A stretch of 64,000 bases of DNA from a virus. The translations under genes and the position numbers were made by a program. The stretch is taken from the IMG/VR virus record IMGVR_UViG_3300032215_000682, positions 32,001 through 96,000 of that record; one strand, given 5' to 3'. Below are positions 349 to 53,652 of the stretch, piece by piece. How positions within the stretch are numbered: the first letter of the stretch is position 1; every line of letters begins with the position of its first letter. The notes below the pieces were generated by a model that saw nothing but the letters and a program-made list of their open reading frames with translations, did not search any database and was not told the DNA's origin.

Positions 349-3300
349 TTAAAAAGGAACAACACATCCAGGATTTTCTTCCTCTTCTATATTTTCATTA
401 GTTTTCTCTTCTGGAAGAATATCTTCATTATTAGAAATATTTTCTTGGTCTATGTCATCTTCTATTTCTAAATTAGGAATTTTTGTTTTATCATTATCAT
501 ATTTACTATTTAATTCTTCAATTTTTACATCACTATCTTCAACTTTAAGAGAAGATATTACAATGGCAATATTTTTAGGTCTTGTTAAAGCTGTATAAAT
601 ACTTTCAGATTTTTCTTTATTGGAAATAGGCCCAACAGACATAATATCTTTTTCATCCACTACCACTATATCATAAGTACTACCTTGTGATTTGTGAGAA
701 GTGATGGCATATCCATAATCTATTTTAGCATATTTGTTTTTAAATCCCCAAGCTTCTTCTAAAGCATTTCTATATTCAGGAGAACCTTTTAAAGCAAAAG
801 CTCTTTTAAACTTCTGAGAAACTAATTCTGCATATTTTTCTTTATCTTTTGACATTATAACATCTATTTCTCTAGGTACATCTTCTAATAATATTATAGC
901 AGAAACATAAGAAAGGTCATATCCATCTCTTTTAGGTAAAGATACAGTACTTATTTGACTCTCAAAAGAATTTTCTATATCTCCATAAGCGTCATTAAAA
1001 ATTATAAGTTCATTAGGATTGTATTCAGGACTATTTACACCAAATATAGAATCATGAACAAATTTATTAATACTTTGTCTAGTATTATTTTTATATGTCA
1101 CTACTTTAATGTGATTTGGATTATTAGTGTTTATAGCTTCTTTAAAACTCTCTAAAACATCTTGTTTAATATCATTAAAACTATTAGTGAAGATTAAAGC
1201 TCCTTTATCAGAGATAATATTTTTTCTTTCTTTTGCAGGATTTTCATCTGGAGTGTTTTTTTGAGAATTTTCCCAAAAATGGTCTGCAAATGGAAGTATT
1301 GGAGAATCTTCTCCCTGTCTTACTCTTTCTAATAATTTACTCTTATTTTTCCCTTCAAAAACAGGAGACTTTTTACTAAGAAGTTCTTTTTTATCTTTAT
1401 AATAAGAATTTTCAACAGTTCTTATTGGAGGAAGTTGACCCACATCTCCTAAAAATATCACTTTACTATTCTTAGATTTTTTTTCAAATATAAGTTCCAT
1501 AGCTTGTTCATTAATCATAGAAGCTTCATCTATAATAATAATATCAGCATTTTCAATAGGAACAGATTTTCCTTTCTGAGGAGCTTCAAATATTCCATTT
1601 TCTAAATTCATAGATTGTCCTAATAAAGAAGCAATACTTTCAAATCTAGCAAATATTTTACTTTTTCTAAATTTTTCCCTAATAACAGATTTAGCTTTAT
1701 GAGAAAGAGCTGCTACATATGTTGCACTATTAGGAAATTCTCTCACTATTTGTTCAGCTATTGTAGTTTTACCTGTACCTGCTTTTCCTTCAATGACATA
1801 ATATTCTTTAGGATTTCCATTTTTAATAAAATCAATTGCTCCTTTTACAGCTATTTCTTGCTCTGGATTTAATTTTACATTATTAACAGGAGTAGCATTC
1901 TTAGTTTCTTCTATATATTTCTGTTCTTGAGATTTAATTTCTATTTTAACAGGAGTTTTAAGTCTATAAGCTTCATCAGGATAAGTGTGTACAGTAATCT
2001 TCTTACCATCTTGTGTTACAGTTTTAATAAGTCCCAACCCTCTTTTCACTTTAGGTTTGATTATCTGAGCATTATTAGGAACAAAATACTTATCATACCA
2101 TTCTTCTAAAGCTCCATTATTTTCAACAATTTCTTTCATTAATGGTAACACTTTCTCTATTTCATTAGAAATCTGTTCTGTAGGAAGAAGGTTAGTCATA
2201 TATAAAGGACTCTTTTGTAGTCCAGATTGTATAAAAGCAAATGATATGTAGTCTTTAAAGAATTCTCTTACCTCTAAATTATCATCAAGTAGTCCTTTTT
2301 TAATTTCATCAATAGCAAGATTGACATCATTAGTTTCTCTAATTTCTGATTTAAGTTTTAGATTTACAATATCTTTTCTTAATGTTGATGTATTTCCTAC
2401 AAGATTTTTTAAAATAGAATATTTTTTAATTAATTCTGGTTGATCCTTTAATAGAGTGTTAAGTCTATTTATCATCTCCCCATTAAATTGTGGTCTAATA
2501 GTTTGAAAACTATTACCAAAAGCATTATAAGCATATCCTATTAAATCATTCTTAAATCTGGATTCAAACACTTCTTTATTTCCAAAAGAAGCATCATTAA
2601 TTTTAGACAATAGAAATTCATTCACTTGAGGAAGTTCTACAAGTTTAAAAAACTTTGTAAAATTCTTCTTAACAAAATCATTCATATCTAACATAGAAAT
2701 AACAGAATCTTTTTTAATAGCTTCTATTCCTTCTTTATTAAATATATTTTTAGATAGCACTTGTTGATATAATTCTTCTTTTTCAAAAGCTGCAAACACA
2801 CTACTTAAATTAGCTGTATCAAAATCTAAAGCACTTGTTAATTCTCTCAATCCTTGTGCTTGTTGCTCAAGTTCTATATAATGTTCTAAATAAGCTCTTT
2901 GTGTCTTATTACTACTTTTAGAAATGTTTTCTTTTAATGTTTCTTCATTGTATATATCAGAAGATTGTACAATAGCTTCTTTAACAGGAAATTTAGCTTG
3001 TAATATTTCTTTAATTTTTTTGTCAGTAAAATTATTATTTTGATATAAGCTATTTAACAATTTACCCATTTGAAAATTCTTTAACTTCTTTAAAGCTAAA
3101 TATTCTCTAATAATAGACTGATTTACTAAATAAATAGCCTCTCTAATAGGAACACCTGCATGATTTAAATATAGCAATGTTGGTGTAGCTTCAAATGTAG
3201 CACCTAAATCAAACACCCAAGCATCTTTAGCAACATCCACAAAACCATTCATAAATTGTGAAATGATTTCAGATATTTTATATTCTCCATTAGCATCATA

Positions 3301-6300
3301 TTCTTTAGCTAGAGATATATTTTTATATGGGCCATTTTGTATAAAATTATGTTTTAATAATATTTTATTTTCTACTCTTCCATCTGCATATTTAAAAAAA
3401 TTATTTAAAAACACATTATGTTGTTTAAAAAGTTGACTAAATGTATTATTCTTAGCAGCTATTCCTAATGATTTTTTACCCACTAAATTAGCTTCAAATT
3501 GATTAATTTGTGTACTATAATCAAATAATGTAGAATAACCCACTTTTTCTCCTCTTCCTACAATTTTTTTTATTTCATCAGCTAATGGTTTTAGGACAGA
3601 TGTACTATTAGGAGTGATTAAAGATTCAAACATTTCAGGTTGCTCCAAACTTTCTGAAAGCAAACTTATCATTTCATTTTGAAGAATAGATTTTTTATTA
3701 GTACTTGGTAAATCTTTTGTATATTCTTCAATTCCTTTGTCTAACACTTGTTTTAAAGCTGTTATTTTAACATGTATTGCATCACTTTTATCTCTAATGC
3801 TGCTAAAATGTTCATAAAGTTCTATAATATATTTTTCTATTTGCTCATCTCTTTCTTTTTTATTTTCAGCAGACTCTAATATATCTCTTACATCTTGTCT
3901 AACAAATCCAGGAAAACTTTCCAACACTCTATCATTTATTTTTTCACCAGAGCTTTTTTTATTAAATCTTGGTAATTTTCCATCCTCTTTAAAATTAGGA
4001 ATGTACATTGACACTTTATCAATATCAAAGTCAGATCCTGCAATTGCTGTAATTTCGCTAGGAAAAACAATTAAAGAACCTGTAGAAGCTGGAAGAAATT
4101 CTTGAACAATACAATTAAGCATAGAGTTAGCTCCTTGTACAGGAATCCTAACACCCACCATTGTTAATTCAGCTTCATGTTCTTTCACCCATTCTTCATC
4201 TTTTAATAGTTGATTTAAAGCTATTAAAGCTTTTCCTTCATCTATCTCATCAACTAACTTTAATAAAGGTTTAAATTTATTAATGCTCACCTTCACTTGC
4301 ATTTTAGAGACATATTTCTCTCCATTTTCTCTTTCTTTTATTTCATAAAGCTTTAATGTACTATCTTTGTCCCATCCTGTAAATGCTGTTTGAACAAAAT
4401 TATCACCATTAAGTTTATTTTTTATCAGCCTATTATTTACAATAGAAAGAAGAATATTAGTGATTTGTTGTCTAGCTAATGATGAATCAAGAGAATACAC
4501 TAAATTACCTTCATTGTCTGTTCTAATGAAGTCTTGTATATTATCAGGAACATCTTTAGTTTTAAATTCTTTTTGTAATAAAGAAGCAAGAGCTTTAAAA
4601 TTAATTGGCTCATTTTCACCTCTTATTCCAAGTTCTTTTCTTACTTTTTTAAGTTCTATATCAACTAATTGTTGTCTAGCAGCATTATATTTAGCAGAAA
4701 TAGCACCAATCTTTTCAGAAATAGGCTTACCTTCAGCAAACATATCTACATTAAACAATTTATTAAACTGTGTAGCAAATATAATATTAGGTTTCACTTT
4801 AGGCTCAATATACACTTGCTCTTTAAGATAGTGAAAATACTTATCATTTGTTAAATATGGCACTTCTCTATTCTCAAAATTCTCATATTCTCCATTATTT
4901 TGTAAAGCAGCTTTTTTACTACCACTTTCAAATATTCCATATCCTATATTTTCTTTAACAAGTTTATCATTAAATCCTTCTAATGGTTTACCTTTAATAG
5001 CTGTAGGTATCATAGGAATAAGAGCAAATTTATCAAATGCATCTATTCTCATCTCTTGTCCAAAATGTTGCTCTGTATTAGCTATTGTGCCTGAATACTG
5101 AGCCTTAATAGGAACAAAGTAATACAATTCATCATTAGATAGTTCAATGCCCTTAGCAGCCTTTATATAAGCTTTTTCAGCAAGGTCATTCCATTGTCCA
5201 ATTATAATTTTAAAATTTCTATAAAAGTCTAATGTACACAAACCAAGAGCATCTGTTTCATTTACTTCTTTAAAAGCTTTTAATGTATTGAATATATTAA
5301 ATGGAGCATCTTTGAGAGCTTCTTTAGCTTCATCTATGTCCATATTAATTAATTCTTCAGCATTCAATTCTTTTCCAGAATTTTTAATAACAGTGTTTAA
5401 ATAATCTTTTAAATAATTAGAAATTATCTCTCTGTCTTTTAATACAACAGACTTATAGAATTCTTCTACTTGTGATTTTTTATTAAACAAATGTTGTTCT
5501 TGCTCTCTGCCTGTAGCATTTAAATAATATTTAATAATAGGAGACATTACACTAAAATCTCCTGTAGCAGAATCAGCACTAAGCCTTTTATGTACATCTT
5601 CTGGAGATTTAAATTGTGTTACATCACCATTTATAAACATCATTTGTTCATAATTGTAAATATAATTACTTACAACAAAAGCATTAAGAGCATCTGAATA
5701 AGAAAGTCCTTTAGTATCTTTAATACCTATTTCATCAGAAAGGAAATTTCCTTTATTTGTAATTCCTTGTCTAATTTTATCCTTTAATACTTCCACCCTA
5801 TCTTTAAAGAATTTTTCTAAATAAAGCTTAATATCAATATCTTTAAATATATCATCAACATTATTATTAATATTTTCTAATATTTGTTGTTTAATTTCTT
5901 CAGGAAGAATATCTGTAAACATTCTAAATCCATTTCCTGTTTTGTCATATTTAGCAATAGTTATTCCTTTTTCTTCTTTAGCTTTTAAATATATTTTATT
6001 ATACCTTTGAATTTCAAGAATTGTGCCTTTTAAATAATCTTCAAATATATATTGAACAGGAGAAGGTATTAATTCACCATCAAATTCACTAATAGCAACA
6101 GGGTAATTACTGTTAGTGGTGTTATACTTAATTTGTGTACCAAAAGCACTTCCTTTATCACCATATCTCATATGCTCTACAATATTATTTGCAAAGAATG
6201 AGTTTATGTCATAGAATATTTTATCTACACTAAATAAGTCTGTAGTTTTATTACCAACAGTGTCTCTATCAGTTTTAGTTTTAAATCCTCCAATATCTAT

Positions 6301-9300
6301 TAATTCAATTTCAGAATTTCTTCTTTTTCCAAATTCTTCACCTTTTATAATAGAACCATCTTCATTTCTTATTTGAAACAAGGAATTCATCCAAAGTGTA
6401 TAATATAATGTAGGAGAAGCTTCAACAGAATACTCTGGAAAAACTTTAATAAAATCATCTAAATGAGGATATTTTTCTTTATTATTAATTTCAGCATATA
6501 TAAGGCTAGTTTTACTAAATTGAGAATATTGTGATTTCATATCTCCACTAGGAAGCATAGCCATATCTTCTTGCCATTCATTTGTAGCATCTACTTCTAT
6601 TTGTAATAAAGCATCAATATTTGTAGCTTCTGATTTATATTTAAATTCTTTAATTACACTAGCTACACCACTAATATCTTTAATAGGAGATGTTATTTTT
6701 TCACCATAGCTATTAAGATGGTTCATTCCATTGAATATTTGATTCAATGTATCTCTATTATCTGTAATTAAATCATTAAAAGCTTTAGAATTAATTGTAA
6801 CATCACTAAGATCTATACCTAAAGATTTAATAAAAGCAATTCTTGTAGCCTTATCTTTCTTTAAATATGTAACACCATCTTTAACAACACCAAAATCTTT
6901 ATTAACAGAAGCAACATCAAGAACATTTTCTCCAATATTATTTTTAATTATATAAGAAGATTCTTCTATTGTTTTAAAATTAGCTGTATAATATGCTCCT
7001 AATTTATCAATAGCTTTTGTAGCAGATTTAGTGTTATAAAACCCAAACCCTCCTTTAGTGACATCATATACACCTTCATATAAATCAATTTTAGGTTTAG
7101 AAAAAGCTTGTATAAAGGATTGTAAAAGGCTTATTTGTTTAATATTAAAATCTGGATAATTTTCTAATTTAGGAAGTCTTTGTGTGCCATCTTTATCATT
7201 ATTAACCAATTGCTTATACTCTGGATATGTATTTCCAAGTTTAACAATAACATCATACATTTCAACAGGATCTGTTATTCCTTGTGTTTGAGATTGTAGT
7301 CTATACCATGTAGTGCTTAATGGAAGAAGCTTTGGAAATCCAAATTCATTTAATTCTCCTCTACTAAGAGTACTCATTAAAAATACAATTTGCTTAGAAG
7401 CTTGTTTAATTGCTGATTTTTTATTCTTTTCAGCCCATTCTACAGCACCATCTCTTGAAGTTATTTCTTCTTCATCTATTTCTTCCTCTGTTTTAATACC
7501 ACTAAATATTGATGAATTCTCAATATAAGTTTTCTCAAACCCAAGCTTACCATTAAAATTATCATATAGAAATTGTAATTTATCTTGTTGTTCTTGAGGA
7601 AGTGTTTTTGATTCTAGTTTTTCTTGAATGCTAAGCCTAGCTATTTCATATAAACCATCAAAGTTTTTCTTTTTATCTTTCTCATCTGCTGTAAATAAAA
7701 CAAACATCTTACCCCTTCTTTCTAAACCAGAAGTTATAATAGAATCAATTGTGTTAATATAATTATTTACATCTACACTACCTATAATAGTACCATCTTC
7801 AGCAGTGTAAGCTTTATTAAGCTTTCCAAATAATGCATTATCTAATGAAGGAACATTATTAAAATTTCCTTTATATAATTGTTTATAAACATTCTTAATA
7901 GCATCAGGACTTATTAATTCCTTAATGAAATTCCACATTTTTTGAAATATTGTCTGCTTAGACAAATCTTTATCAAAATACATTGTTCCATTAGAATCAG
8001 CATATTCCTCAAAATTATCACCTAGCACTTCCTCAGCTTCTCTATTTGTTAATTGAGAATATGATTTAGAAACTAAATTTCCAGATTCATTAATAACATC
8101 TACAACACCAGATTTCTTTCTTAATTCATTATATAAATTAGTTTTTTGTCTTTTTGTTAAGAATAATTGTGAAAATCCATGATAGGCTTCATGATATAAC
8201 ATTCTTGGTGTAGCAGTGTTATATAATGTAACAACATTATTAAAGAATGTTGCATGAGCACCGCTATTAACAATATTGATAAAGTGATTTAAATCAATGT
8301 ATTTAGAAAGAGGAGAATTACTCCACCAATTTTTTACATCATTCCATTCTGTTTTAGAAAATTTAGATTCTAGTTTTCTATCTTTATTTAAAGTATCAAA
8401 TATATCATCTATACTTTTCTCAGGTTTTTGTTTAATTTCTTGCTTAACCTCTTGTTTTGTTTCAGGAACAATGTTTGAATTATCCAACATCATGTAAGTG
8501 CCTGGAAAAGCTTGTACACCATTTTCAGCAAGTGTGTTAGAATCTTTATTATCATTTACATCCTGATAAATTTCTGTATTATCTATTATGAATTTCTCAT
8601 AATTTGCAGGTGTAAAACTAAGCTTTCCCTCTGTAAATATAGGAATATTAAAATTCTCAATATTTTCAGGAGATTTTATATTTAATTTCTTTTGTCCTAA
8701 AGCATGTTCTAAAGCTGTTTTAAATGCTTCAGAATTATTTTCAGAGATATTAAAATAATAAAAATCACCAACAGCTTTTACATTTTCTATATTAGAAACA
8801 GAATATCCATCAAAAAAACTTTTATTAATTTTAAAAGCTTCTCCATTTTTATTCTTAATTAGATTAATAGAAGCATCATCAAAATATACATATCTATCTA
8901 AATAAGCTTTTCTAGCTTCAAATGTATTTAATGTTTTACTAACATTATTTTCTGTTCCTATTTTAATAAGAGCATCAATAAAGCCTTGCAATTGAACATT
9001 AGCTAAATAAGGTCTTGAAATAGGGAAATTAAATCCATATTTACTATCTGTTAAATAAGATTGTCCTTCAACTCTATCAACAGAAGGTGTTGTACTAACA
9101 AATAATTTTAAATCAGGAAGTGTGTATTCAGCTTGTTCTAATTTTCCATTTAAATTTTTAATAAATGATGATGTAGAAATAGGCTCTGTTACAAACTTTG
9201 TAACAATTCCCATCCCCATTCTTTGAATACTAATAAGAGAAATAGGTGGATTTTTTCTCAAAGCCTCTAAATCTTCTAATGACTGTCTATATGTTGCAGC

Positions 9301-12300
9301 ATCTTCTTCTTTTTCATCAATATCTTTTCTTTTAAAACCTATTGTATTAGTTTTTTTATCATACACTTCTGTAGCAGATCCTGTTATTTTACCATTAGTA
9401 TCTTTATAAATTGTAGGAACATTGTGTATAGAGGGAATTCCTCCTTCTATAACAACATTTCCTTTTTCATTAAAATAAACAATTTGACCAGCATTATCTA
9501 CTAGAACAAGTTTAACATGAGTGTTTTTTTCTTCAATAGCATCTATTTCTTCTTTAGTTTTTGTATCATAACCATTTTCTTTCCAATAGTTATAATCATT
9601 TTCAAATAAGTCTTTAATAGCTTCAAGTCCTCCTAATCTTTCAATTAATTGAGAAGGTCTAAGCACTAACACTTTAAAATCATTAATAGTTTCTTTATTA
9701 ATTATCTGTTTTAAGCTATTCTGAGCTGTTTTAAATGCTTTGTCAACTGTTGTAGTGCCTTTTAGAAACAAATTGCCTACAGAGGTTCCTATGCTATGTA
9801 AAACAGAAGCAGGTACAGGTGGTGGTAATACTTTTTCAACATCATCAATATCAACATCAATTTCATTAGGAATATTTTCTGAATGTAATTCATTTATTCC
9901 TTTTTGTATTTCTATGTCATTATTTATTAATTCTTCAGCACTTACATCACCTTCTTCAGCTTTTGTATTAATATCTTCTATTTCTTTTTGAGAATACACT
10001 TTTTTAAATGGAGAAAGTTCTTTTACAGGTATATTATTTAATACATGTTCACCATCTACTAATGTTACAACATTATCAACAGGAAGAGAACCTAATTTAT
10101 AAGCATTTCCTTTATATTGAACATCATCATTTACTTTTAAGTTTTTAACAAACTCTTCTTTATTAATATTTCCTTCTAAAGGAATATCACTTCTTGATTC
10201 AATATTTTTAATAGCAGCTTCAATTTGAGCTTTTTGATGATCTTCTAATACTACACCAGATTCTCTTATTCTTTTTTCAAAATCTTCTAAAACTTGAATA
10301 GCATTGTCTTCCTTTTCTTGAGGTGTTCCTTCTTTAGCATAAATAGCCTCAGCTTGTTTAATAGCTTCATCAATATTTAAAGCAGCTTTTTTCTCTTGTT
10401 CTATTTCTAATTTTCTATTTTCTAATTTAGTTTTGATTTCATCTAAATTTTTTAAATACTCTTTAGAAATATTAGGAATATTACCTTCAGATTTTATAGC
10501 ATTTAATCCCTTGTCAAGTTCTGATGGGTCATTTATCTTTTTAATATTTGCATCAGAATATTCTTTATTAAATACTTCTAATGAAGATTTTGTATAATCA
10601 TTAGGAATTGTTTCTTCTTGAGCTTTTGCTATAGTTTCTTCAGAAGTGGGTATATTAGCAGCTTCTTCTTGATATTCTGCTTGTTTTTCTTCATTTTTAG
10701 TTAATAGAACAGCTTCACCAAGATTTTCTCTCTTGATTTCATTTTGAAATATCTCAAATTTTCTAGACTCTTTAACAGAATCAGAAAGATGTGGCATACT
10801 ATCTATTAAAGTATTCCAAGATTCATTTCTATCAAATATTTCTTTATATACATCCACTAATTTATTTCTTCTATCAGCTTCTTCTTTAGTTATAAAACCT
10901 TTTTCCACCATATCATCTATATTACTTTTATAAATGCTAGGAGACATTCCCACTCTATATTGACTATATTGAAGTTGTGTATTATTATTTTTCATTCCTA
11001 ATACACCTTCTAATGTAGATTGTGGAAGCATTGTTGCTATAGTTTGTAAAGCTGTATTAACAATGTTTTCTAATGTAAGAGGATCTGTATTTTGATAATC
11101 TTTTTTATAATTAGCTTGAGCATATTTAGTAGCAAAATGATTCATAAAAAGTCCCATTTCTTCTTCTAAAGTTTCTGCACCACTAGTTTTTAGAAATCCT
11201 TTTGCAAATTGTTTAAGAGCATCTCTATCTGTTTTATATAAAAATTTATATAATAGTGGAGCTGCTTCCTTACTTGTAATACTTTCTAATGTTCTTTCAA
11301 TAGCTTTTCTAAATACAGCATCATCTGTAAGTTTTATCAAATCATGTATCTCACCACCAGCAATAGCTAATTTAGTGTTTACTAAAGCATCTACACCTAT
11401 TCTTTCTGTAAGTCCTTCTATACCAGCTCTAACAGCTCCAAGCTTTGTAGATTGATTTAATGTAAGTCCTTTATCAAGTTCTTGTTTAATCATTTCAGGC
11501 CCAAATAAATATACAGAAGGAAGTATAAATCCTGTTGTTGTTCCTATAGCATATTTTGTAGCTTGTAATGTTCCAAGTTCTGCATATTGTGCAGCTTTAA
11601 CAAAAGCATTTGTACCTTCTTTAGCTAATAAACCTTCTTGATATTTTATTGTATTTCCTAATAAAGCTTCTTCAAGTCCTTCTCCTGCAAGTCCTGGTGT
11701 ACCTATTAACACCATATCAAGTCCTACATTACCTATTTGATATAACCAACCAGCAACATCTACTTTAGGCATCAATGTTCCAGCTTTCCATTTAACAGAT
11801 TCTAATTGAGAAAGATTAACTTTCTGACCATTTCTAGTAGTTTGGAGTTCTTGTGTATCTTCACCAGTATTCCATAATGATAATAATGCAGCTTCTTTAT
11901 AAGATGCTTTTCTACCATCATTTAATGTAATAGTGCCATCTTTACTAAAATCTGTAAAACCATTTGTTGCAGCAGCATAAGCTCCCCAAAATCCTGAATC
12001 TTTTTTTAGCATTAAAGCTTTACCTCCTAATAAAGAAAGAGCACCAAGTCCCACTTTACTAGCCCAATTAGAGTTTTCCCACATATTATTTAAATAATCT
12101 TGATGGGCTTCATAATGTGTTAAATCAGGAATTTCTTTTTTAATAACATCATCTACTCTTTTTATATATTTATTTTCTTCTTCAATTTTACTTTGAAGAT
12201 TTATTTTCATTTTAGTAAGGTCTGCATATTGTTGTTTACCTTCATCAGATAATTTGTTTACAGGATCTTTTAATAAAACATCAAACTGTTTTAATTGTTT

Positions 12301-13485
12301 ATTAATATCATCTAATATAGGTTGATCTTTATATTTTATTAAAGCTTGCAAACTCTGTTTATCATTTACAGCTCCATTATATAAATATCTTTGAACATCA
12401 ATAGACCCATCTTTCAATCCTGTTCCATGATTTGTTAATTGTAATTGAGCAAGAGCTTTTATTTCTCCATTCTCATTACCAGCATTTTGCACTTTAATTG
12501 CATTATCTATCCATTTATCTTTTAATGCTTCAGTGTTTAAAAGATTTGTATTCTTTAAAAATTTAACAGAGTTTTCTAAATCTTGATTAGTAGAAGTTAA
12601 ATCATTTAAATCTTGTATAGGATCTAACACTTTCTTACCATCTTCTGATTTAGTAGAAGAAATAGATTTATCTGTAGCAAGTTTAGTTTTTACATTTGTT
12701 AATAATTCATTTAAGGCTTTATAAGCTTTTTCTGAATTTTCTATTGTAGTAGCATTCTGTTTTTGTAAATTTTGTCTAATAACAGGATCTGATTCATCAG
12801 CTATTGCTAATTGTGCAGATGTAGAAGCAGTTTTATGTTTCCACATTTCATTTGTAATCTTAGCAGCCTCATCAGAAAGTTGCTTACTATCATAAACTGG
12901 AGTAGTTTCAGAATAAGTTTTCTTACCATCTTTGTTTACATCCACTTGATAACCTAAACCAGCAGTGTTTATATTATAATATTGTGAAGCATTTTCTAAT
13001 ACTTTTCCTAAATTATCAGAATATGTTGTAGCATCTATACTATTAGAAGGAAGATTAGAATTAGTTAAAAGTTTATTAGTTGTATTTCCTACATTAATAG
13101 TATTAGTAGTAGGTTTTAATAATGAAGTAAATTCATTAACATCTCCTTTGAATCCTTGTTGTTTATTATTTAAATAATGATCTACAATAAATCCAGAAGC
13201 TAATGGAACTGCTAAAGCACTAAATACCATTCCAGCCCAATCTGTCTTCTCTTCTTTTGGTGGAGCAGGTGTAAAAAATTCAGGAAATTTAGAATTAAGT
13301 TCTTCAGGAGTTTTATATTTTCCTGATGAAACTGTTGCTACATAATCATGAGCAGACTTTACTAAATTACTATCTCCATTAAATTCAGGAAATTTAGTAA
13401 GCAAATCTCCATCTGTTAAATATGGTTTTGCTTCTATTGTAGATTTAAAGTCATCTAATGTTTGTTGATTTATATTATTTGGCAT
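349..13485 (-). CDS. Giant virion-packaged RNA polymerase (crAss-like) with zincin HExxH motif and C-terminal SF1B Dda/RecD-like helicase
   Basis: Catalytic AGSDFDIDK (nt ~4018-4032), GVRIPVQGANSM, ETDALG and FMNGFVDVAKD are typical of crAss-like vRNAP. HEAYH lies at 8179-8193. Helicase motifs are GKAGTGKTT, IIDEASM, GDVGQLPP, YAITSHKSQGSTY and YTALTRP. Confidence 0.92.
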   Translation of the reverse strand: MPNNINQQTLDDFKSTIEAKPYLTDGDLLTKFPEFNGDSNLVKSAHDYVATVSSGKYKTPEELNSKFPEFFTPAPPKEEKTDWAGMVFSALAVPLASGFIVDHYLNNKQQGFKGDVNEFTSLLKPTTNTINVGNTTNKLLTNSNLPSNSIDATTYSDNLGKVLENASQYYNINTAGLGYQVDVNKDGKKTYSETTPVYDSKQLSDEAAKITNEMWKHKTASTSAQLAIADESDPVIRQNLQKQNATTIENSEKAYKALNELLTNVKTKLATDKSISSTKSEDGKKVLDPIQDLNDLTSTNQDLENSVKFLKNTNLLNTEALKDKWIDNAIKVQNAGNENGEIKALAQLQLTNHGTGLKDGSIDVQRYLYNGAVNDKQSLQALIKYKDQPILDDINKQLKQFDVLLKDPVNKLSDEGKQQYADLTKMKINLQSKIEEENKYIKRVDDVIKKEIPDLTHYEAHQDYLNNMWENSNWASKVGLGALSLLGGKALMLKKDSGFWGAYAAATNGFTDFSKDGTITLNDGRKASYKEAALLSLWNTGEDTQELQTTRNGQKVNLSQLESVKWKAGTLMPKVDVAGWLYQIGNVGLDMVLIGTPGLAGEGLEEALLGNTIKYQEGLLAKEGTNAFVKAAQYAELGTLQATKYAIGTTTGFILPSVYLFGPEMIKQELDKGLTLNQSTKLGAVRAGIEGLTERIGVDALVNTKLAIAGGEIHDLIKLTDDAVFRKAIERTLESITSKEAAPLLYKFLYKTDRDALKQFAKGFLKTSGAETLEEEMGLFMNHFATKYAQANYKKDYQNTDPLTLENIVNTALQTIATMLPQSTLEGVLGMKNNNTQLQYSQYRVGMSPSIYKSNIDDMVEKGFITKEEADRRNKLVDVYKEIFDRNESWNTLIDSMPHLSDSVKESRKFEIFQNEIKRENLGEAVLLTKNEEKQAEYQEEAANIPTSEETIAKAQEETIPNDYTKSSLEVFNKEYSDANIKKINDPSELDKGLNAIKSEGNIPNISKEYLKNLDEIKTKLENRKLEIEQEKKAALNIDEAIKQAEAIYAKEGTPQEKEDNAIQVLEDFEKRIRESGVVLEDHQKAQIEAAIKNIESRSDIPLEGNINKEEFVKNLKVNDDVQYKGNAYKLGSLPVDNVVTLVDGEHVLNNIPVKELSPFKKVYSQKEIEDINTKAEEGDVSAEELINNDIEIQKGINELHSENIPNEIDVDIDDVEKVLPPPVPASVLHSIGTSVGNLFLKGTTTVDKAFKTAQNSLKQIINKETINDFKVLVLRPSQLIERLGGLEAIKDLFENDYNYWKENGYDTKTKEEIDAIEEKNTHVKLVLVDNAGQIVYFNEKGNVVIEGGIPSIHNVPTIYKDTNGKITGSATEVYDKKTNTIGFKRKDIDEKEEDAATYRQSLEDLEALRKNPPISLISIQRMGMGIVTKFVTEPISTSSFIKNLNGKLEQAEYTLPDLKLFVSTTPSVDRVEGQSYLTDSKYGFNFPISRPYLANVQLQGFIDALIKIGTENNVSKTLNTFEARKAYLDRYVYFDDASINLIKNKNGEAFKINKSFFDGYSVSNIENVKAVGDFYYFNISENNSEAFKTALEHALGQKKLNIKSPENIENFNIPIFTEGKLSFTPANYEKFIIDNTEIYQDVNDNKDSNTLAENGVQAFPGTYMMLDNSNIVPETKQEVKQEIKQKPEKSIDDIFDTLNKDRKLESKFSKTEWNDVKNWWSNSPLSKYIDLNHFINIVNSGAHATFFNNVVTLYNTATPRMLYHEAYHGFSQLFLTKRQKTNLYNELRKKSGVVDVINESGNLVSKSYSQLTNREAEEVLGDNFEEYADSNGTMYFDKDLSKQTIFQKMWNFIKELISPDAIKNVYKQLYKGNFNNVPSLDNALFGKLNKAYTAEDGTIIGSVDVNNYINTIDSIITSGLERRGKMFVLFTADEKDKKKNFDGLYEIARLSIQEKLESKTLPQEQQDKLQFLYDNFNGKLGFEKTYIENSSIFSGIKTEEEIDEEEITSRDGAVEWAEKNKKSAIKQASKQIVFLMSTLSRGELNEFGFPKLLPLSTTWYRLQSQTQGITDPVEMYDVIVKLGNTYPEYKQLVNNDKDGTQRLPKLENYPDFNIKQISLLQSFIQAFSKPKIDLYEGVYDVTKGGFGFYNTKSATKAIDKLGAYYTANFKTIEESSYIIKNNIGENVLDVASVNKDFGVVKDGVTYLKKDKATRIAFIKSLGIDLSDVTINSKAFNDLITDNRDTLNQIFNGMNHLNSYGEKITSPIKDISGVASVIKEFKYKSEATNIDALLQIEVDATNEWQEDMAMLPSGDMKSQYSQFSKTSLIYAEINNKEKYPHLDDFIKVFPEYSVEASPTLYYTLWMNSLFQIRNEDGSIIKGEEFGKRRNSEIELIDIGGFKTKTDRDTVGNKTTDLFSVDKIFYDINSFFANNIVEHMRYGDKGSAFGTQIKYNTTNSNYPVAISEFDGELIPSPVQYIFEDYLKGTILEIQRYNKIYLKAKEEKGITIAKYDKTGNGFRMFTDILPEEIKQQILENINNNVDDIFKDIDIKLYLEKFFKDRVEVLKDKIRQGITNKGNFLSDEIGIKDTKGLSYSDALNAFVVSNYIYNYEQMMFINGDVTQFKSPEDVHKRLSADSATGDFSVMSPIIKYYLNATGREQEQHLFNKKSQVEEFYKSVVLKDREIISNYLKDYLNTVIKNSGKELNAEELINMDIDEAKEALKDAPFNIFNTLKAFKEVNETDALGLCTLDFYRNFKIIIGQWNDLAEKAYIKAAKGIELSNDELYYFVPIKAQYSGTIANTEQHFGQEMRIDAFDKFALIPMIPTAIKGKPLEGFNDKLVKENIGYGIFESGSKKAALQNNGEYENFENREVPYLTNDKYFHYLKEQVYIEPKVKPNIIFATQFNKLFNVDMFAEGKPISEKIGAISAKYNAARQQLVDIELKKVRKELGIRGENEPINFKALASLLQKEFKTKDVPDNIQDFIRTDNEGNLVYSLDSSLARQQITNILLSIVNNRLIKNKLNGDNFVQTAFTGWDKDSTLKLYEIKERENGEKYVSKMQVKVSINKFKPLLKLVDEIDEGKALIALNQLLKDEEWVKEHEAELTMVGVRIPVQGANSMLNCIVQEFLPASTGSLIVFPSEITAIAGSDFDIDKVSMYIPNFKEDGKLPRFNKKSSGEKINDRVLESFPGFVRQDVRDILESAENKKERDEQIEKYIIELYEHFSSIRDKSDAIHVKITALKQVLDKGIEEYTKDLPSTNKKSILQNEMISLLSESLEQPEMFESLITPNSTSVLKPLADEIKKIVGRGEKVGYSTLFDYSTQINQFEANLVGKKSLGIAAKNNTFSQLFKQHNVFLNNFFKYADGRVENKILLKHNFIQNGPYKNISLAKEYDANGEYKISEIISQFMNGFVDVAKDAWVFDLGATFEATPTLLYLNHAGVPIREAIYLVNQSIIREYLALKKLKNFQMGKLLNSLYQNNNFTDKKIKEILQAKFPVKEAIVQSSDIYNEETLKENISKSSNKTQRAYLEHYIELEQQAQGLRELTSALDFDTANLSSVFAAFEKEELYQQVLSKNIFNKEGIEAIKKDSVISMLDMNDFVKKNFTKFFKLVELPQVNEFLLSKINDASFGNKEVFESRFKNDLIGYAYNAFGNSFQTIRPQFNGEMINRLNTLLKDQPELIKKYSILKNLVGNTSTLRKDIVNLKLKSEIRETNDVNLAIDEIKKGLLDDNLEVREFFKDYISFAFIQSGLQKSPLYMTNLLPTEQISNEIEKVLPLMKEIVENNGALEEWYDKYFVPNNAQIIKPKVKRGLGLIKTVTQDGKKITVHTYPDEAYRLKTPVKIEIKSQEQKYIEETKNATPVNNVKLNPEQEIAVKGAIDFIKNGNPKEYYVIEGKAGTGKTTIAEQIVREFPNSATYVAALSHKAKSVIREKFRKSKIFARFESIASLLGQSMNLENGIFEAPQKGKSVPIENADIIIIDEASMINEQAMELIFEKKSKNSKVIFLGDVGQLPPIRTVENSYYKDKKELLSKKSPVFEGKNKSKLLERVRQGEDSPILPFADHFWENSQKNTPDENPAKERKNIISDKGALIFTNSFNDIKQDVLESFKEAINTNNPNHIKVVTYKNNTRQSINKFVHDSIFGVNSPEYNPNELIIFNDAYGDIENSFESQISTVSLPKRDGYDLSYVSAIILLEDVPREIDVIMSKDKEKYAELVSQKFKRAFALKGSPEYRNALEEAWGFKNKYAKIDYGYAITSHKSQGSTYDIVVVDEKDIMSVGPISNKEKSESIYTALTRPKNIAIVISSLKVEDSDVKIEELNSKYDNDKTKIPNLEIEDDIDQENISNNEDILPEEKTNENIEEEENPGCVVPF

Positions 13486-13486
13486 A

Positions 13487-15124
13487 TTATCTTACTGTTC
13501 CTTTATTTATTTGTGTATTATTAGAAGAAGCTGTTTTAGTTGCTGGTTTTAATCTATCTCCTATTGTAGCAGCAAAACTATTAATATCTATTGGAGTAGA
13601 AGCTTCAGTGTCCCATACATGTCCTTTAATACTATAAGTGATTTTATCTCCCTCAAGTTTTACTTTTGTCACTTCATCATCTTTTGGAATATTAAATTCT
13701 GCTTTATATTCAGGATCATTTAACCATTCTTGAATAGTTTTATTAACACTAGCTTGTACATCTGTAGATTTAGCACTAAGATTTTCAGCATTTTTTAATA
13801 GATTATTAAATTCTGCAACTTTTGGATTATTAGAAGTGTTAGCTAATTTTTTAATTTCAGCTTTAGTTTGTAATAGATTTTTCTGTCTTTGTTCTATTAT
13901 ATCTGAATGAGCTTGTGCTTTTTCTAATTCTAAATCATTAGTTCTTGTTGCAGCTTCTTGAGCAGCTTTTAGTCCTTTAGGTGTATGTATTCCATTAATA
14001 ATTAATGAAGGATCTGTAGCTTCACCAGTGGCAGGATTTAATGCTCCAGGTATAATTCTATCAGCCACTTGTTCTTGTATATGTTTACCAATAGCAAGTT
14101 TTTGCTCATAATCTTTTAGTCTATATGCTTCTTCTTTGTGAGATTTTAATGTAGAATAAGCATATGACTGAGCATTATCTAATGCATAATTATTCAATGT
14201 TTGTTCCATTAAATCATTTTTATATTTATTAACATCAGGATCTTTTGCCATTTTTGCCCATTGAGCATATTGAGCTTCAGCTTTTTGAGCATCTAAAATA
14301 TGTGTTTTATATCCCACCATATCATGCTTACTTGCAGCAATATTAGCAAGTCCATAAGCATTTTGAGCATTAGTACCAGCATCACTAGCCATTTTTCCAT
14401 AATCCATTCTAGCTGTGTTTTCCCAAGGTGTATTCTGATGTTCAAAATTAAATTTTCTTTGAAATTCAGCATAAGCTTGTGGGTCATTTTGAAACCTTCT
14501 TTTAATATTAGCTGCTAATGCTGCTTGATATTTAGTTTCAGTTTCATCAGTGTAGAGTCCACTGGCATCAGGTTTAAATTCATTAGTGGCATGTGTCTCT
14601 TTAGCTGCTTCATCTAATATTTTATTAAAATCAGCACTCTTATAAATATCTCCACTAAAATCATAATTTTTAATGTATTTTCCTTGTGCTATATAATTTT
14701 GATATTTTTGTAAAGGAAGAGCATTCCATGCACTAACAGTTTCACCTTTTTCTGTTAAATCATTATATTTTTTTAACTTTTGATGATAATCATTACCTCT
14801 TTGTACAACATTCTGAAAATCAGGATTTGATGTAATAGAATTAATATTTTGCTTAATTTGAGCTTGAACATTGCTGTTAGACAAATCATTAGAAGCTAGT
14901 CCATTAACACTTTCTGTTAATTTTTGTAAAGCTTGATTTTTAATATCAGTGTCAGCTCCAGGCAATGTAGGCATATTAGCTATATTATCTAATTGAGCTG
15001 TAAGATTATTAGCAGCTTTATCTGCCTGATCTTTTTGATGCATCACCCCATGAGCAAGAATATCTAAACTCACTGGAGGTACATATTGTGGAGAATTCTG
15101 TATTAGCTGACTTGAATAGTTCAT
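13487..15124 (-). CDS. Internal virion cargo/ejection protein
   Basis: Helical 545-aa protein with N-terminal YVPP motif, directly upstream of the vRNAP. This is the crAss-like cargo position. Confidence 0.6.
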   Translation of the reverse strand: MNYSSQLIQNSPQYVPPVSLDILAHGVMHQKDQADKAANNLTAQLDNIANMPTLPGADTDIKNQALQKLTESVNGLASNDLSNSNVQAQIKQNINSITSNPDFQNVVQRGNDYHQKLKKYNDLTEKGETVSAWNALPLQKYQNYIAQGKYIKNYDFSGDIYKSADFNKILDEAAKETHATNEFKPDASGLYTDETETKYQAALAANIKRRFQNDPQAYAEFQRKFNFEHQNTPWENTARMDYGKMASDAGTNAQNAYGLANIAASKHDMVGYKTHILDAQKAEAQYAQWAKMAKDPDVNKYKNDLMEQTLNNYALDNAQSYAYSTLKSHKEEAYRLKDYEQKLAIGKHIQEQVADRIIPGALNPATGEATDPSLIINGIHTPKGLKAAQEAATRTNDLELEKAQAHSDIIEQRQKNLLQTKAEIKKLANTSNNPKVAEFNNLLKNAENLSAKSTDVQASVNKTIQEWLNDPEYKAEFNIPKDDEVTKVKLEGDKITYSIKGHVWDTEASTPIDINSFAATIGDRLKPATKTASSNNTQINKGTVR

Positions 15125-15151
15125 AAATTTTTATATATATTATATATAACA

Positions 15152-15205
15152 CAAAGATAATAAAAATAAATGAATATTCCTAATATCTCAGTGTTTTATG
15201 TGAAT
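15152..15205 (-). promoter_or_regulatory. Bacteroidota sigma-A-type promoter plus upstream palindromic box
   Basis: Minus-strand TATCTTTG (15152-15159) and TTAGG at the -33 position. Box ctcagtgttttatgtgaat at 15187-15205. Confidence 0.65.
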
Positions 15206-15209
15206 TTAA

Positions 15210-18158
15210 TTATTTTTTTAATTTTTTCTTTAACATTCCACCATATTTCTTCTTTTCAACAGTTTTAGTACTCACTTCACCTTTAGCATTTCTACTAGTG
15301 GTGTTAGTTACATCTGCTGAAGCATTATATGGAGCTGTCATTCCTGGAGCCATCCATTGAAATGTAGAATTAGGAGAATTACCATAGACATCTTGAATAT
15401 ATTTAGCAGAAGCATTATAAGCATTAGCATTATACATATTCTGTGTAGAAGCATTAGCATCAAATCTTTTCTGACTATCAATAACACCTTTACCTTTATT
15501 AATTAAGTCCATAAATCTATTTCTTTCTTGTAAATTTTGTTGGTCTACAGCAGAAAGTTCTCTAGCATTGAATTCATCAACACCTATCTTACCTTGTTGT
15601 GCTCTATTAAAATTATCACTATATATTCCTTGTTTAGCTCTCCATGTATTAGCAAAAGATTGAGCACTATTAGCAAGTCCCATAGGGGATGTATCTAAAC
15701 CTTTAGTTGTAACTCTAAATCCTCTATTAGCTTCTGCAATAGCAGGTTCTATATCTGTAGGTCTATAATTAATTAAATGAGGATTTAGTTGACTAGTTTG
15801 TAATGGGTCTTCTTGATATGTGTTCATTACAGGAAAAGGAAGTCCATTAAAATTCATTCCATTAGATTTTTGTCCAGAAGTTCCTTTAATTTTATTTACA
15901 TTAAAATTAGCTTTATCATTTGGTGATACAGGTGTAGTAGGTGTAACAGTCTCATCTTTTAACTCATTAATATTAGGAAATCTATAATCCCAAAGACCAT
16001 CTTTAAATCCAGCAAGTTTTTGATTATCTGTATAATTACTTCCTATTGGATTTTTGTAATAAGGGTCATTAAATGCTTCTCCTTTAGCTCCATATAATTT
16101 AACACCAAAGTCTGTCATAGGTTGATGTCCCATATATTCAGCAGTTTGCTTAGGGTATGTAGAAGCCATCCAATTTTGTAATGATGCTATATCTTTAGCA
16201 CCTTTATAACCTTTAGCAATAGCATCTTGATATATATGATCTACATTTTCATAACTACCTGTAGGCCCAAATTGTCCTGTTATTGTTGGAAATAGTCTTT
16301 GAAATGGAGCTTCTACATTTACATTATTTGTTTCTTCAATATTAAAAGGATTTGTTGGAGAAACATTATTATTTACATTTAAATTATAAGGAATTATATT
16401 AGGATTTTGTCCATAATATGTACCATCATTATTTACTTCATTTCCTTTTAGTAATGTTTTTCCACCTTCTTTATATTTAGAAATAAAACCTCCAACAGCT
16501 TTTTTCATTCCTTTAAATTCTCCTATTCCATTATGCATTTTAAATGCTTGTTGAATATTATAAATATTGTCAACTTTTTCATTTTTTATTTTTAAATTTA
16601 AATTAGCTGTATTTCTTTCAATAGAGTCAGCATATTTATTATTTAAATTCTCAACATCACTTTCTGTAGAGTATTTTTTAGCTTCTTCTGCAAAAGATTT
16701 TTCTTTTTTATTAGGCATAAACTGAAATTTTAGTCTATCTGATAATACTTTTGTATTAGGAGCATTAACTGGTATACCACCTTGCTCATGTTTAGGGCCT
16801 TGCATATCATTTATAAGACCTTCTGGTGATTGAATAGTTTCTCCACCTTCTATTTCAGAATTACTATTTCTTCTAGTAGTTCTAAAATCATTTACATTAA
16901 ACATCTTTGGAAGTTTGTTTGTAATAGAAGGAAGTGTTTCTTCTGATAATTGTTCTTTTGGAATGCCATTTTCATTTTCTTCTATTTCTCCACCAGTGTC
17001 ATATTTTATTTTACCACCATTGTGAAACTGTAAAGGCTTTCCTGTCTTAGCATCAAAATACTCCATTTCTCCACTTTCACCATCTTGCTTAGGTCTTGAA
17101 AAGTATTTTGGATATTGAGGTTGCATTTTAGGTACTTCATACTTACCTAAGATTGGTTGCTGTGTATTATCTCCTTGTGGAAATGGTTGAGTTATAGATT
17201 GTATGTTATTTTGAGGTCTGTTTTGTTTTTTTACTAGTTCAGATGTATATGATTTTTCAAGAGTATTGTTTTTTAATCCATTATAAGAATTAGTAATAGT
17301 TGTATAAGAAGGCTCATATTTTTGTGGAGATTTATTATTTTGTACTAAATTATAAGTAGCAAAATGTTCTCCATTTTGGTCATATACTGGATGATTATAA
17401 ACATTTTTATTTATAGAACCATTATCAAAAGTTTGAGTATTACCACCATCTCCATATTTAATAGTTCCTCCATAAGCATTAAAAAGCCCTTGTTTCATTT
17501 CTCCATGTAAATCATTTGGTGTGAAATTGGAGAATCCATCTCTAAGACTACCATCTAATTGAGAAAATAATTGATTATTATCATAGTTTTTAGTATATCT
17601 ATTCTGCATTGTATCACCAACAGCTTTAGCTATTCCTTTAGTGAAATCCTTTCCAGCAGATATTCCTTGTCCTATTCCTTGTGCAGGTGTTTCAGCATTA
17701 ATAGAATTAATTGTATGCATTCCTGCTGTAGTAAAATAATCTCCATGTCCTGACATTGGAAGAGAATATATTCCTTTTCCATATGGAGATTTTGTATTAT
17801 TTTTCTGATTAATTAATCCTTGAAAATCTATATTAGGAGCTGGTAATGGTATTCCAGAATTATCCACTCTATTTGCAGGATTTGCAGGATCATCAGGGAG
17901 ATTGGAATAAGGATTATCATCTTCTCTTGGTAGAGGCATAAAACCACCTTCACCATATTTTTTAGCAAATTCTAATAGATGTTTATCATATATGGGATCA
18001 CCTGAAATAAGTCCTCCTTCTGCTTTTTTATGAAAACCATGATGTTTTTTCAAAGTTTTAGCTAATGCTTTCCTTTTAGGAGTACATGTTGATTTTGTCA
18101 TTGGGGTACAATATCCTTTATGTTTAGGATTTATACCCATAAATTCTTTCTTTGACAT
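15210..18158 (-). CDS. Internal virion cargo protein with repeated K(Y/F/A)xxGG motifs
   Basis: 982 aa, low complexity, about 9 xxGG motifs and a conserved-looking EIEGGE...GPKHEQGGIPV...VLSDRLK block. Located upstream of the vRNAP genes. Confidence 0.6.
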   Translation of the reverse strand: MSKKEFMGINPKHKGYCTPMTKSTCTPKRKALAKTLKKHHGFHKKAEGGLISGDPIYDKHLLEFAKKYGEGGFMPLPREDDNPYSNLPDDPANPANRVDNSGIPLPAPNIDFQGLINQKNNTKSPYGKGIYSLPMSGHGDYFTTAGMHTINSINAETPAQGIGQGISAGKDFTKGIAKAVGDTMQNRYTKNYDNNQLFSQLDGSLRDGFSNFTPNDLHGEMKQGLFNAYGGTIKYGDGGNTQTFDNGSINKNVYNHPVYDQNGEHFATYNLVQNNKSPQKYEPSYTTITNSYNGLKNNTLEKSYTSELVKKQNRPQNNIQSITQPFPQGDNTQQPILGKYEVPKMQPQYPKYFSRPKQDGESGEMEYFDAKTGKPLQFHNGGKIKYDTGGEIEENENGIPKEQLSEETLPSITNKLPKMFNVNDFRTTRRNSNSEIEGGETIQSPEGLINDMQGPKHEQGGIPVNAPNTKVLSDRLKFQFMPNKKEKSFAEEAKKYSTESDVENLNNKYADSIERNTANLNLKIKNEKVDNIYNIQQAFKMHNGIGEFKGMKKAVGGFISKYKEGGKTLLKGNEVNNDGTYYGQNPNIIPYNLNVNNNVSPTNPFNIEETNNVNVEAPFQRLFPTITGQFGPTGSYENVDHIYQDAIAKGYKGAKDIASLQNWMASTYPKQTAEYMGHQPMTDFGVKLYGAKGEAFNDPYYKNPIGSNYTDNQKLAGFKDGLWDYRFPNINELKDETVTPTTPVSPNDKANFNVNKIKGTSGQKSNGMNFNGLPFPVMNTYQEDPLQTSQLNPHLINYRPTDIEPAIAEANRGFRVTTKGLDTSPMGLANSAQSFANTWRAKQGIYSDNFNRAQQGKIGVDEFNARELSAVDQQNLQERNRFMDLINKGKGVIDSQKRFDANASTQNMYNANAYNASAKYIQDVYGNSPNSTFQWMAPGMTAPYNASADVTNTTSRNAKGEVSTKTVEKKKYGGMLKKKLKK

Positions 18159-51575: not shown

Positions 51576-52254
51576 AATAATCTTTTTTAAATACCCATTT
51601 AAAATCTTTATAAATTTCTTTTGATTTAATTGCTTTACCTATCATTGGAGCACACATATTGATGCTCTTAGAAGCTTCTTTTACTGTACCAAATTCTTCT
51701 ACAATAATATTAGTTATAGGATTTAATTTTAAAACAGCTTTGGCTACATAACTATCTTTACCTTTTCTACCAATTAAATCTGTCCTTTTATAAATTAAAT
51801 CTTTCATCTTTTGTTTCTTAGATTCAGAACCTTTCATACCAGTTCTTATCTTAGAAAATTTTTTACTTAGTTCTTTAGAAATTTTATAACCTTTTCTTCC
51901 ATTTCCACTTTTACCACCTTCTGTAAAATTAACAAGTTCTCCTGTCTTTAATTTTCTTCTACCATAAAGTTTTATTAATTCTACCTCTCTAGCTAAACAT
52001 TCTTTTCTATTATCAAATTCTTCTATAATTTCTATATTATATCTATACTTATTAGCTACTCTTTTCCAATACCCACTTCTATTTTTAAAATTACAAGCTC
52101 TACCATAATATCCTTTATATTCACAAGTACCAATTCCTATGTAAAATATTCTATTAGTATCTGCTCTGGCATGTTGATAAAGATAATATTTTTTATTTAC
52201 AAAATCACAATTTATTATAATACTATCACAACTAGACTCACTATCAATTTCCAT
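51562..52254 (-). CDS. Free-standing GIY-YIG homing endonuclease with NUMOD DNA-binding repeats
   Basis: YYLYQH...IFYIGIG...R, E..LIKLYGR, LVNFTEGG and a C-terminal NUMOD1-like EFGTVKEASK. Confidence 0.8.
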   Translation of the reverse strand: MEIDSESSCDSIIINCDFVNKKYYLYQHARADTNRIFYIGIGTCEYKGYYGRACNFKNRSGYWKRVANKYRYNIEIIEEFDNRKECLAREVELIKLYGRRKLKTGELVNFTEGGKSGNGRKGYKISKELSKKFSKIRTGMKGSESKKQKMKDLIYKRTDLIGRKGKDSYVAKAVLKLNPITNIIVEEFGTVKEASKSINMCAPMIGKAIKSKEIYKDFKWVFKKDYYGSK

Positions 52255-52582
52255 TCTCTAATATTTTTTTAAGTTCAGAATAATATTCTATCTTTCCATC
52301 TTTAATTTCCACCATTCCTCCAAGAGCATACTGTAATGAGTCTAATTTAGCTTTCATTTCTACTGTTAACACTTCTTCTAAGACACTTTCACATTCTATT
52401 TGAAGAATACTACACACCACTTTAAATTCAGCCTCTAATGCCATTATTTTAGTTATTAGAGCACCGAGTTTAATTTTATCAGATTGTGTTTTAACATCAT
52501 TCTTTAATTTATCAATCTCAGGATTAATAATTCCAATATCATTTAGTATTTTTTCTAATCTTTTTATTAACTTTTCCTTCAT
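52244..52582 (-). CDS. Hypothetical protein
   Basis: ORF in the co-oriented operon. Confidence 0.55.
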   Translation of the reverse strand: MKEKLIKRLEKILNDIGIINPEIDKLKNDVKTQSDKIKLGALITKIMALEAEFKVVCSILQIECESVLEEVLTVEMKAKLDSLQYALGGMVEIKDGKIEYYSELKKILENGN

Positions 52583-52691
52583 ATATTAATTCTAATTTAC
52601 CTTTTATTTCTTTATAATAATTACCTGTTATTTTATCATAGAATACATTACCAAGTAATTCTTCTAATTCTTCTTTTTTAATATTTTCCAT
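52539..52691 (-). CDS. Small hypothetical protein (50 aa, MENIKKEELEELLGNVFYDK...)
   Basis: Fills the gap with overlaps on both sides. Below the ORF-track cut-off. Confidence 0.5.
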   Translation of the reverse strand: MENIKKEELEELLGNVFYDKITGNYYKEIKGKLELIYEGKVNKKIRKNTK

Positions 52692-52914
52692 TTATATTTT
52701 TTGCTATAAAATAAATTGCTTCAGTGGTATCTTCCAAATCAAATTCTTCTTTTATTTTATTCAAATAAACTTCTAATTTTTTAGATTTCTTTTTTAATTT
52801 TCTAGGCAATCTTTTAACAGTATAAGGAATACTAAAGGTCACACCACTTGGTTCTATCTCAGTCATTTTAAAAGGAGAGGTGTTAATTAAATTAATTTCA
52901 TTTATATCTATCAT
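52678..52914 (-). CDS. Hypothetical protein with RLPRKLKK motif
   Basis: ORF in the operon. Confidence 0.55.
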   Translation of the reverse strand: MIDINEINLINTSPFKMTEIEPSGVTFSIPYTVKRLPRKLKKKSKKLEVYLNKIKEEFDLEDTTEAIYFIAKNINGKY

Positions 52915-52928
52915 ATTTTAATATTTTT

Positions 52929-53357: not shown

Positions 53358-53361
53358 AATA

Positions 53362-53646: not shown

Positions 53647-53652
53647 TTTGAT

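Follow-up and report, generated by a model that had tools for sequence, protein, structure and literature searches.

Phage phi14:2 carries gp65, gp66 and gp67 as virion proteins, and gp66, its virion RNA polymerase (vRNAP), is efficient on single-stranded or denatured DNA templates and inefficient on duplex DNA (10.1101/2020.03.07.982082). Neurospora QDE-1, the eukaryotic relative of gp66, also favours single-stranded DNA and needs a separate helicase, QDE-3, together with RPA (10.1101/2020.03.07.982082), and vRNAP fusions forming a 'single huge polyprotein' have already been published (Drobysheva et al., 10.1101/2020.03.07.982082). In crAss001, the proteins associated with the RNA polymerase (RNAP) were found by mass spectrometry to be virion cargo and were proposed to be ejected from N- to C-terminus ahead of the DNA. 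Here we describe the fusion of a crAss-type vRNAP module with a complete helicase of the Dda/RecD-like superfamily 1B (SF1B), encoded in a 64,000-nucleotide stretch of viral DNA (the window), which corresponds to positions 32001-96000 of one viral contig of 115,636 bp that is bounded by direct terminal repeats of 123 bp (IMG/VR record IMGVR_UViG_3300032215_000682). The question touched by this fusion is how a vRNAP of this type gains its single-stranded template in the cell, given that purified gp66 barely transcribes duplex; the template preference of gp66, as given in an earlier note on this DNA, agrees with the published work.

A polymerase and a helicase in one reading frame

The fusion protein, P0001, is read without an internal stop across 4,378 codons, which confirms the uninterrupted open reading frame (ORF) of 349-13485 that the earlier note had described from the sequence. 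Its parts are the following (window coordinates):

349-13485, minus strand: giant ORF (P0001), presumed cargo protein bearing the vRNAP, 4,378 aa, ATG start, TAA stop
550-1884, minus strand: Dda/RecD-like SF1B helicase, aa 3868-4312, all motifs intact, with PHROG, Pfam, PDB and fold matches
1885-2145, minus strand: linker between the RNAP and helicase modules, aa 3781-3867
2146-5697, minus strand: crAss-type virion RNAP module by gp66 homology, aa ~2597-3780, DFDID at 4018-4032
352-549, minus strand: acidic C-terminal tail, aa 4313-4378, ending ...EEEENPGCVVPF and holding Cys4374
7084-8337, minus strand: conserved HExxH region, zincin-like, aa ~1717-2134, predicted only by motif, HEAYH at 8179-8193
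13183-13239, minus strand: transmembrane-like (TM-like) segment, aa 83-101, WAGMVFSALAVPLASGFIV, the only strongly hydrophobic stretch in a Kyte-Doolittle scan

The helicase motifs span residues 3872-4303 (DNA ~540-1875) and comprise LNPEQ at residue 3872, GKAGTGKTT at 3900, AALSHKA at 3925, IIDEASM at 3984, GDVGQLPP at 4013, ERVRQ at 4053, YAITSHKSQGSTY at 4259 and YTALTRP at 4297. Profile searches matched the Dda-like family phrog_325 (E 9.9e-72), AAA_30 (5e-16) and UvrD_C_2 (8e-7). An AlphaFold2 model of the domain, built from 20 sequences, reached a predicted local distance difference test (pLDDT) score of 90 and a predicted template-modelling score (pTM) of 0.88, and Foldseek placed it closest to DSH9 (8jx6) and T4 Dda (3upu), with E 1e-25 and TM scores of 0.71-0.76 over ~470 columns, followed by RecD2, RecD and Pif1. 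Walker A, Walker B and motifs Ia, III, IV, V and VI are intact and invariant in 16 giants and in 20 helicase domains, and in the alignment of the 16 giants the helicase is the best-conserved part, with every ATPase and DNA-binding motif invariant. Judged by these motifs and by the model, the helicase is apparently catalytically competent. The full Dda/RecD-like SF1B helicase read by the earlier note at ~540-1875 is thus borne out by motifs, by the phrog_325 match and by fold, and the AlphaFold domain parsing proposed there returned the complete Dda fold.

The polymerase module was recognized by its homology to gp66: residues 2597-3461 align by blastp with residues 857-1656 of the phi14:2 protein (24% identity over 909 aa, E 6e-28), including the DFDID motif at residue 3152 (DNA 4018-4032), so that the RNAP site located there by the earlier note holds. 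Homology of this type was found by tblastn in 87 crAss-like records, and a 50%-identity representative library of 1.84 billion proteins gave 2,096 homologues of the module. The alignment of 16 giants shows no variation in GSDFDIDK or at about 20 further positions of the core; 0.05 DFDxD motifs per protein would be expected by chance from the composition of P0001, and the motif is kept in homologues. The region matched no Pfam or PHROG profile, 600-aa slices of P0001 outside the helicase matched no Pfam family, and phmmer of the whole protein against the PDB returned helicases only and no gp66 chain. We take P0001 to be the presumed virion (cargo) RNAP protein of a divergent crAss-like phage, carrying a putative two-barrel module of the gp66 type. 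The corresponding gene of RefSeq cr108_1 is split exactly at the start of DFDxD (13380-13671): gp054 stops at the equivalent of P0001 residue 3152, and 290 nt further on gp053 takes up at 3153, a gap that looks like an intron or an annotation break inside the catalytic motif.

The fusion is real and recurrent. Searched against proteins of 2,407-7,662 aa only, the helicase region gave 1,173 scored matches, and in the best 120, which were listed, the helicase is about 42-62% identical to that of P0001; most of these giants lie on ~100-kb contigs and most have HExxH, DFDxD and Walker A in the same order and with the same spacing as P0001. An alignment-based scan of IMG/VR, unlike a locus search with a single helicase sequence, which gave no match, found RNAP followed by helicase in 13 loci and the reverse order, helicase before RNAP, in L026 and L029, as also in protein P0040. 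The same scan found free helicases of ~470 aa in DNA-metabolism neighbourhoods (SbcCD-like, DnaC-like, RNA ligase). The helicase of L027 had no tblastn match among phages. In four IMG/VR genomes at least 93% complete in which RNAP and helicase occur together (G004, G005, G007 and G008), phrog_325 matches nothing but the fused copy, and in the source genome of P0001 the fused SF1B domain is likewise the family's only match and the sole recognizable helicase. The recurrence of the join on many independent contigs excludes an assembly error, the danger which the earlier note had pointed out; the check found the same architecture in RefSeq as well.

The RefSeq case is gp14 of crassvirus cr118_1 (Suoliviridae, NC_055872), a protein of 4,946 aa labelled 'exonuclease V' or 'DNA helicase', in which the fusion was already present, unremarked. 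Like P0001, it has an HExxH motif (HEAFH, 1734), DFDID (3209), Walker A (4471), motif V (4862) and a cysteine-bearing tail; it differs in sequence, with 26-27% identity per module, its helicase belongs to a different clade, and its RNAP is not annotated in the record. Database annotation thus hides both the polymerase and the fusion, because this architecture is labelled just "exonuclease V".

Five of the IMG/VR records, G005, G008, G009, G011 and G023 (loci L008, L011, L013, L015 and L023), have 10-15 TAG codons in frame within their helicase match, and TAG is therefore apparently read as sense in them. RNAP and helicase matches occur together in L008, L011, L013 and L015, and L023 had no RNAP match.

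What the tethered helicase may do

We give roughly equal weight to the case for and the case against a helicase that assists the RNAP by opening the entering double-stranded DNA, as a helper and not as a requirement. After ejection, the tethered helicase would load on the non-template strand and move 5'-3' (a presumed polarity), and the RNAP would move 3'-5' on the template strand; both would then advance along the duplex in one direction, in the manner of RecD and RecB within RecBCD, so that the tethered pair could open and transcribe the incoming duplex. The opened DNA would supply the single-stranded template preferred by this polymerase family. We infer the time and place of this joint action. 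That the two modules became fused repeatedly, in either order, and that the helicase is strongly conserved both speak for a shared function. A bolder version, which we think unlikely, has a RecBCD-like bipolar pair of RNAP and helicase that would open, transcribe and perhaps reel in the genome without host factors, with a horizontally exchanged cassette that crAss-like phages would gain when the host cannot melt the template and the near-universal C-terminal cysteine acting as packaging or anchoring signal behind this cassette.

Several findings weigh against a helper of transcription. The helicase was found in just 10 of the 150 nearest vRNAP representatives (the best 150 of the 2,096), so that the survey of vRNAPs for SF1B domains suggested by the earlier note did find the fusion, though not as a general property. 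The closest homologue, P0241, is 48% identical to P0001 and collinear with its residues 132-3877, and has no helicase: collinearity breaks off just after the start of the helicase part (LNPEQ at 3872) and is followed by a 46-residue acidic tail with a cysteine. No match to phrog_325, AAA_30, DnaB_C or SNF2 was found in the genome of P0241 (129.8 kb, CheckV 100%), nor any helicase by phrog_325 in the genomes of phi14:2, cr108_1, cr85_1 and cr6_1. Free homologues that are 38-53% identical to the helicase sit in ordinary DNA-metabolism contexts with SbcCD-like and DnaC-like neighbours, and in a larger sister group DUF7831 and NADAR modules come after the helicase, an arrangement that suggests a series of injected effectors, not a device for transcription. 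Besides, we infer packaging and injection of P0001 only from homology and synteny with phi14:2 and crAss001. Since the sister P0241 does without it, the helicase is not obligatory for the polymerase family. The unwind-and-transcribe machine put forward in the earlier note accordingly keeps the support of a conserved helicase and of a fusion recurring in two orders, and has against it the helicase-less sister and the small share of representatives that carry the domain.

The similarities of the two modules disagree. Giants whose helicase is 57-63% identical to that of P0001 have RNAP modules that are mostly just 22-24% identical (the exceptions are P0009, with 34% over 394 aa, and P0005, with a 53-aa match), and RNAP relatives at 30-58% identity have no helicase. 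A tree of 87 helicase domains mixes fused with free forms and implies at least 7 changes between the two states; some of the 'free' proteins on short contigs may be fragments. On these comparisons the helicase is an accessory, mobile and self-contained cassette placed between the RNAP region and the tail, probably obtained by exchange with other vRNAP giants instead of being inherited with the RNAP. Giant cargo proteins of this kind are thereby seen to evolve through exchange of modules at the C-terminus. New from this window are the clean pair of P0001 and P0241, with and without the helicase, and the evidence for cassette exchange; because these two sisters are directly comparable, the built-in helicase constitutes a natural experiment.

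The helicase could also be a Dda-like enzyme of DNA metabolism, delivered by riding on the injected giant and active in replication initiation, recombination-dependent replication or end processing without any role in transcription. The source genome encodes PolA, a DnaG-like primase, an ExoVIII-like nuclease and an AAA ATPase, profile searches found no match to DnaB or SNF2 in it, and the fused domain is its sole recognizable helicase, all of which suits this explanation, as do the SbcCD-like, DnaC-like and RNA-ligase genes adjoining the nearest free homologues. However, the sister phage replicates without a match to the four helicase families searched, and a phage-encoded helicase is therefore not needed for replication in this lineage; moreover, the cassette has repeatedly come to lie beside the RNAP module, in either order, and the gene belongs to the late structural block. 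We consider this explanation unlikely. More improbable in our opinion is that the helicase is an interchangeable effector of a 'polyvalent' injected protein, stripping host DNA-binding or defence proteins or shielding ends independently of the RNAP. A sporadic, cassette-like distribution, the disagreement between helicase and RNAP similarities and the DUF7831 and NADAR domains appended after the helicase in related giants would fit it, and the clusters nearest to the HExxH region in feature space carry the polyvalent families LPD1, LPD23, MuF_C and ART-PolyVal, a lead only. Known polyvalent proteins do combine zincin, helicase and RNAP modules, but in the survey of Iyer et al. 2017 their helicases are SNF2/SF2 enzymes with methylases, rarely UvrD-like, and not Dda-like SF1B enzymes (PMC5512222). 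P0001 itself has no other effector domain and no known defence target.

As an ATP-driven translocase, the helicase might instead pull the genome into the cell while the protein is anchored in the membrane by its N-terminal TM-like segment (aa 83-101). Because crAss001 cargo was proposed to leave N- to C-terminus, a C-terminal helicase would exit last, beside the leading DNA end, and T7 and N4 are known examples of genome entry driven by enzymes. Against such a motor, SF1B enzymes track single-stranded DNA and not duplex and need a 5' single-stranded loading site, and the helicase-less sister phage must inject without one; we hold it highly improbable. That faulty assembly or gene calling produced the join, or that the helicase is a decayed structural filler, is hardly credible and we regard it as already refuted: only the general rarity of such large ORFs speaks for it, and the same architecture is present on hundreds of independent contigs and in RefSeq, with all catalytic motifs invariant and a confident model matching the full Dda fold. 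We keep the assisting helicase as our working interpretation.

The ends of the protein, the HExxH region and the genome

P0001 has 3 cysteines in 4,378 residues, one of which, Cys4374 (window 364-366), is the fifth residue from the C-terminus. A cysteine within the last 10 residues was found in 117 of the 120 listed helicase-bearing giants (22 of about 25 distinct tails) and in 141 of the 150 best-matching vRNAP representatives; the overall cysteine frequency in the 120 giants is 0.3% and their tails are otherwise unalignable. Near-terminal cysteines are also present in gp66 and gp67 of phi14:2, in cr108_1 gp053 and in cr118_1 gp14, and in phi14:2 gp67 the sole cysteine is the last residue. 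This feature, which is not mentioned in the preprint on gp66 (10.1101/2020.03.07.982082), may be a signal for packaging, anchoring or modification. The tails end in ...CVVPF in P0001, ...CFVPF in P0014 and ...CAIPF in P0355. Aspartate and glutamate make up 33% of the last 67 residues of P0001, and we take this tail to resemble the acidic, aromatic-ended partner-docking tails of SSB or T7 gp2.5.

HEAYH at residue 1765 (DNA 8179-8193) belongs to a region homologous to the HESFH region of cr108_1 gp054, and Y-H-E-x-x-H followed by EE ~50 aa downstream is invariant in four lineages, including that protein. From the composition of P0001, 0.03 HExxH motifs would be expected per protein by chance, and the motif is kept in homologues. 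Because of YHExxH and the downstream EE, the motif fits a gluzincin. The region matched no Pfam family (E up to 1) and no PDB profile, and an AlphaFold2 model of aa 1690-2000 (pLDDT 44.8) was too poor for a fold search. The zincin motif announced by the earlier note thus holds for its position and for the conserved HExxH...EE pattern, not for a zincin fold, and its suggestion that the zincin may process the polyprotein found no support in these searches. Towards the N-terminus, the TM-like segment may have a membrane role; a similar TM helix is predicted in the crAss001 cargo protein gp45.

The P0001 gene ends a minus-strand late block which also holds TerL, the portal and virion proteins, and its neighbours are:

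1-330 (genome 22692-32330), minus strand: N-terminus of the next gene, a 3,212-aa gp65-like protein with its own HEILH motif
13487-18158, minus strand: two upstream ORFs (545 aa and 982 aa), placed by synteny only where crAss001 has cargo proteins C2 and C1

The 3,212-aa gene lies directly 3' of P0001 in the same frame, after TAA..TAATAA, and largely outside the window. The 7,599-aa open frame which would cover both giants was rejected as a read-through, because the TAA stop of P0001 and two further in-frame TAA codons precede the ATG of the next gene, so that three in-frame TAA codons part the two genes. HEILH is at residue 1619 of the downstream protein and aligns with the HEIMH region of phi14:2 gp65 (35% identity, E 1e-5); the block holds two HExxH regions because this gp65-like giant has its own. 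The two upstream ORFs matched neither Pfam nor PHROG.

TerL (49163-51256) is 38% identical to that of Leptolyngbya phage Lbo-JY46, 35% to csAssE-Sib, 28% to Cellulophaga phi17:2 and phi4:1, and ~23-26% to classified Crassvirales; from this ranking, the phage is a divergent member of the wider crAss-like assemblage. Like TerL, the 1,966-aa virion protein (19733-25633) is closest to Lbo-JY46, which has a cyanobacterial host, csAssE-Sib and phi17:2/phi4:1, and not to classified Crassvirales. This ORF (phrog_37948) was considered as the real vRNAP and rejected, because DFDxD is missing from it and its matches are structural proteins of phi17:2, phi4:1 and Lbo-JY46. In Lbo-JY46, the closest cultured relative by TerL, no homologue of the vRNAP or of the helicase was detected, and the 1,552-aa protein at the equivalent position ends ...VEVNC. 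Megablast of the P0001 gene against phage records gave no nucleotide match. The genome also encodes glutamine amidotransferase-like, amidoligase-like and two glycosyltransferase-like proteins, which might point to modification of DNA or surface. GC content is low (22-24%) at window positions 52000-56000 and 60000-64000, and the sign of the GC skew switches near 58-62 kb, at the end of the long minus-strand block.

Comparison with known systems

The locus shares with the gp67-gp66-gp65 block of phi14:2 the DFDID motif, the setting in a structural block and the downstream gp65-like gene with HExxH. It differs from it in two respects: the region upstream of the RNAP, with its own HExxH, is fused to the RNAP while the gp65-like part stays a separate gene, and no Dda-like helicase match was found anywhere in the phi14:2 genome, unlike in the source phage. 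A literature search, which did not include Yutin 2018, found no paper on a Dda-like helicase fused to a crAss vRNAP. P0001 combines RNAP, helicase and HExxH region in one chain within a structural block, as the definition of polyvalent proteins has it.

At the hairpin promoters of phage N4, host gyrase and SSB do the opening, and QDE-3 is a RecQ-type helicase that acts in trans in a eukaryote. As described in the available text of Iyer et al. 2017, the N4 vRNAP gp50 and polyvalent proteins provide a parallel to P0001 as a presumably injected giant polymerase with a HExxH zincin-like region and modular add-ons; the N4 enzyme differs in being a T7-like single-subunit RNAP and not a two-barrel enzyme, and no helicase is among the fusion partners of N4-like RNAPs listed in that text (PMC5512222). 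A zincin near the vRNAP was published before, for phi14:2 gp65 (10.1101/2020.03.07.982082) and, in the same text, for N4, whose type of vRNAP is known to occur fused to zincins (PMC5512222). Finally, the helicase of P0001 is like T4 Dda, DSH9, RecD2, RecD and Pif1 in its complete set of motifs and in a fold match over the whole length of Dda; T4 Dda and the other SF1B enzymes are free-standing or are subunits of repair complexes, whereas the helicase of P0001 sits near the C-terminus of a presumed virion protein.

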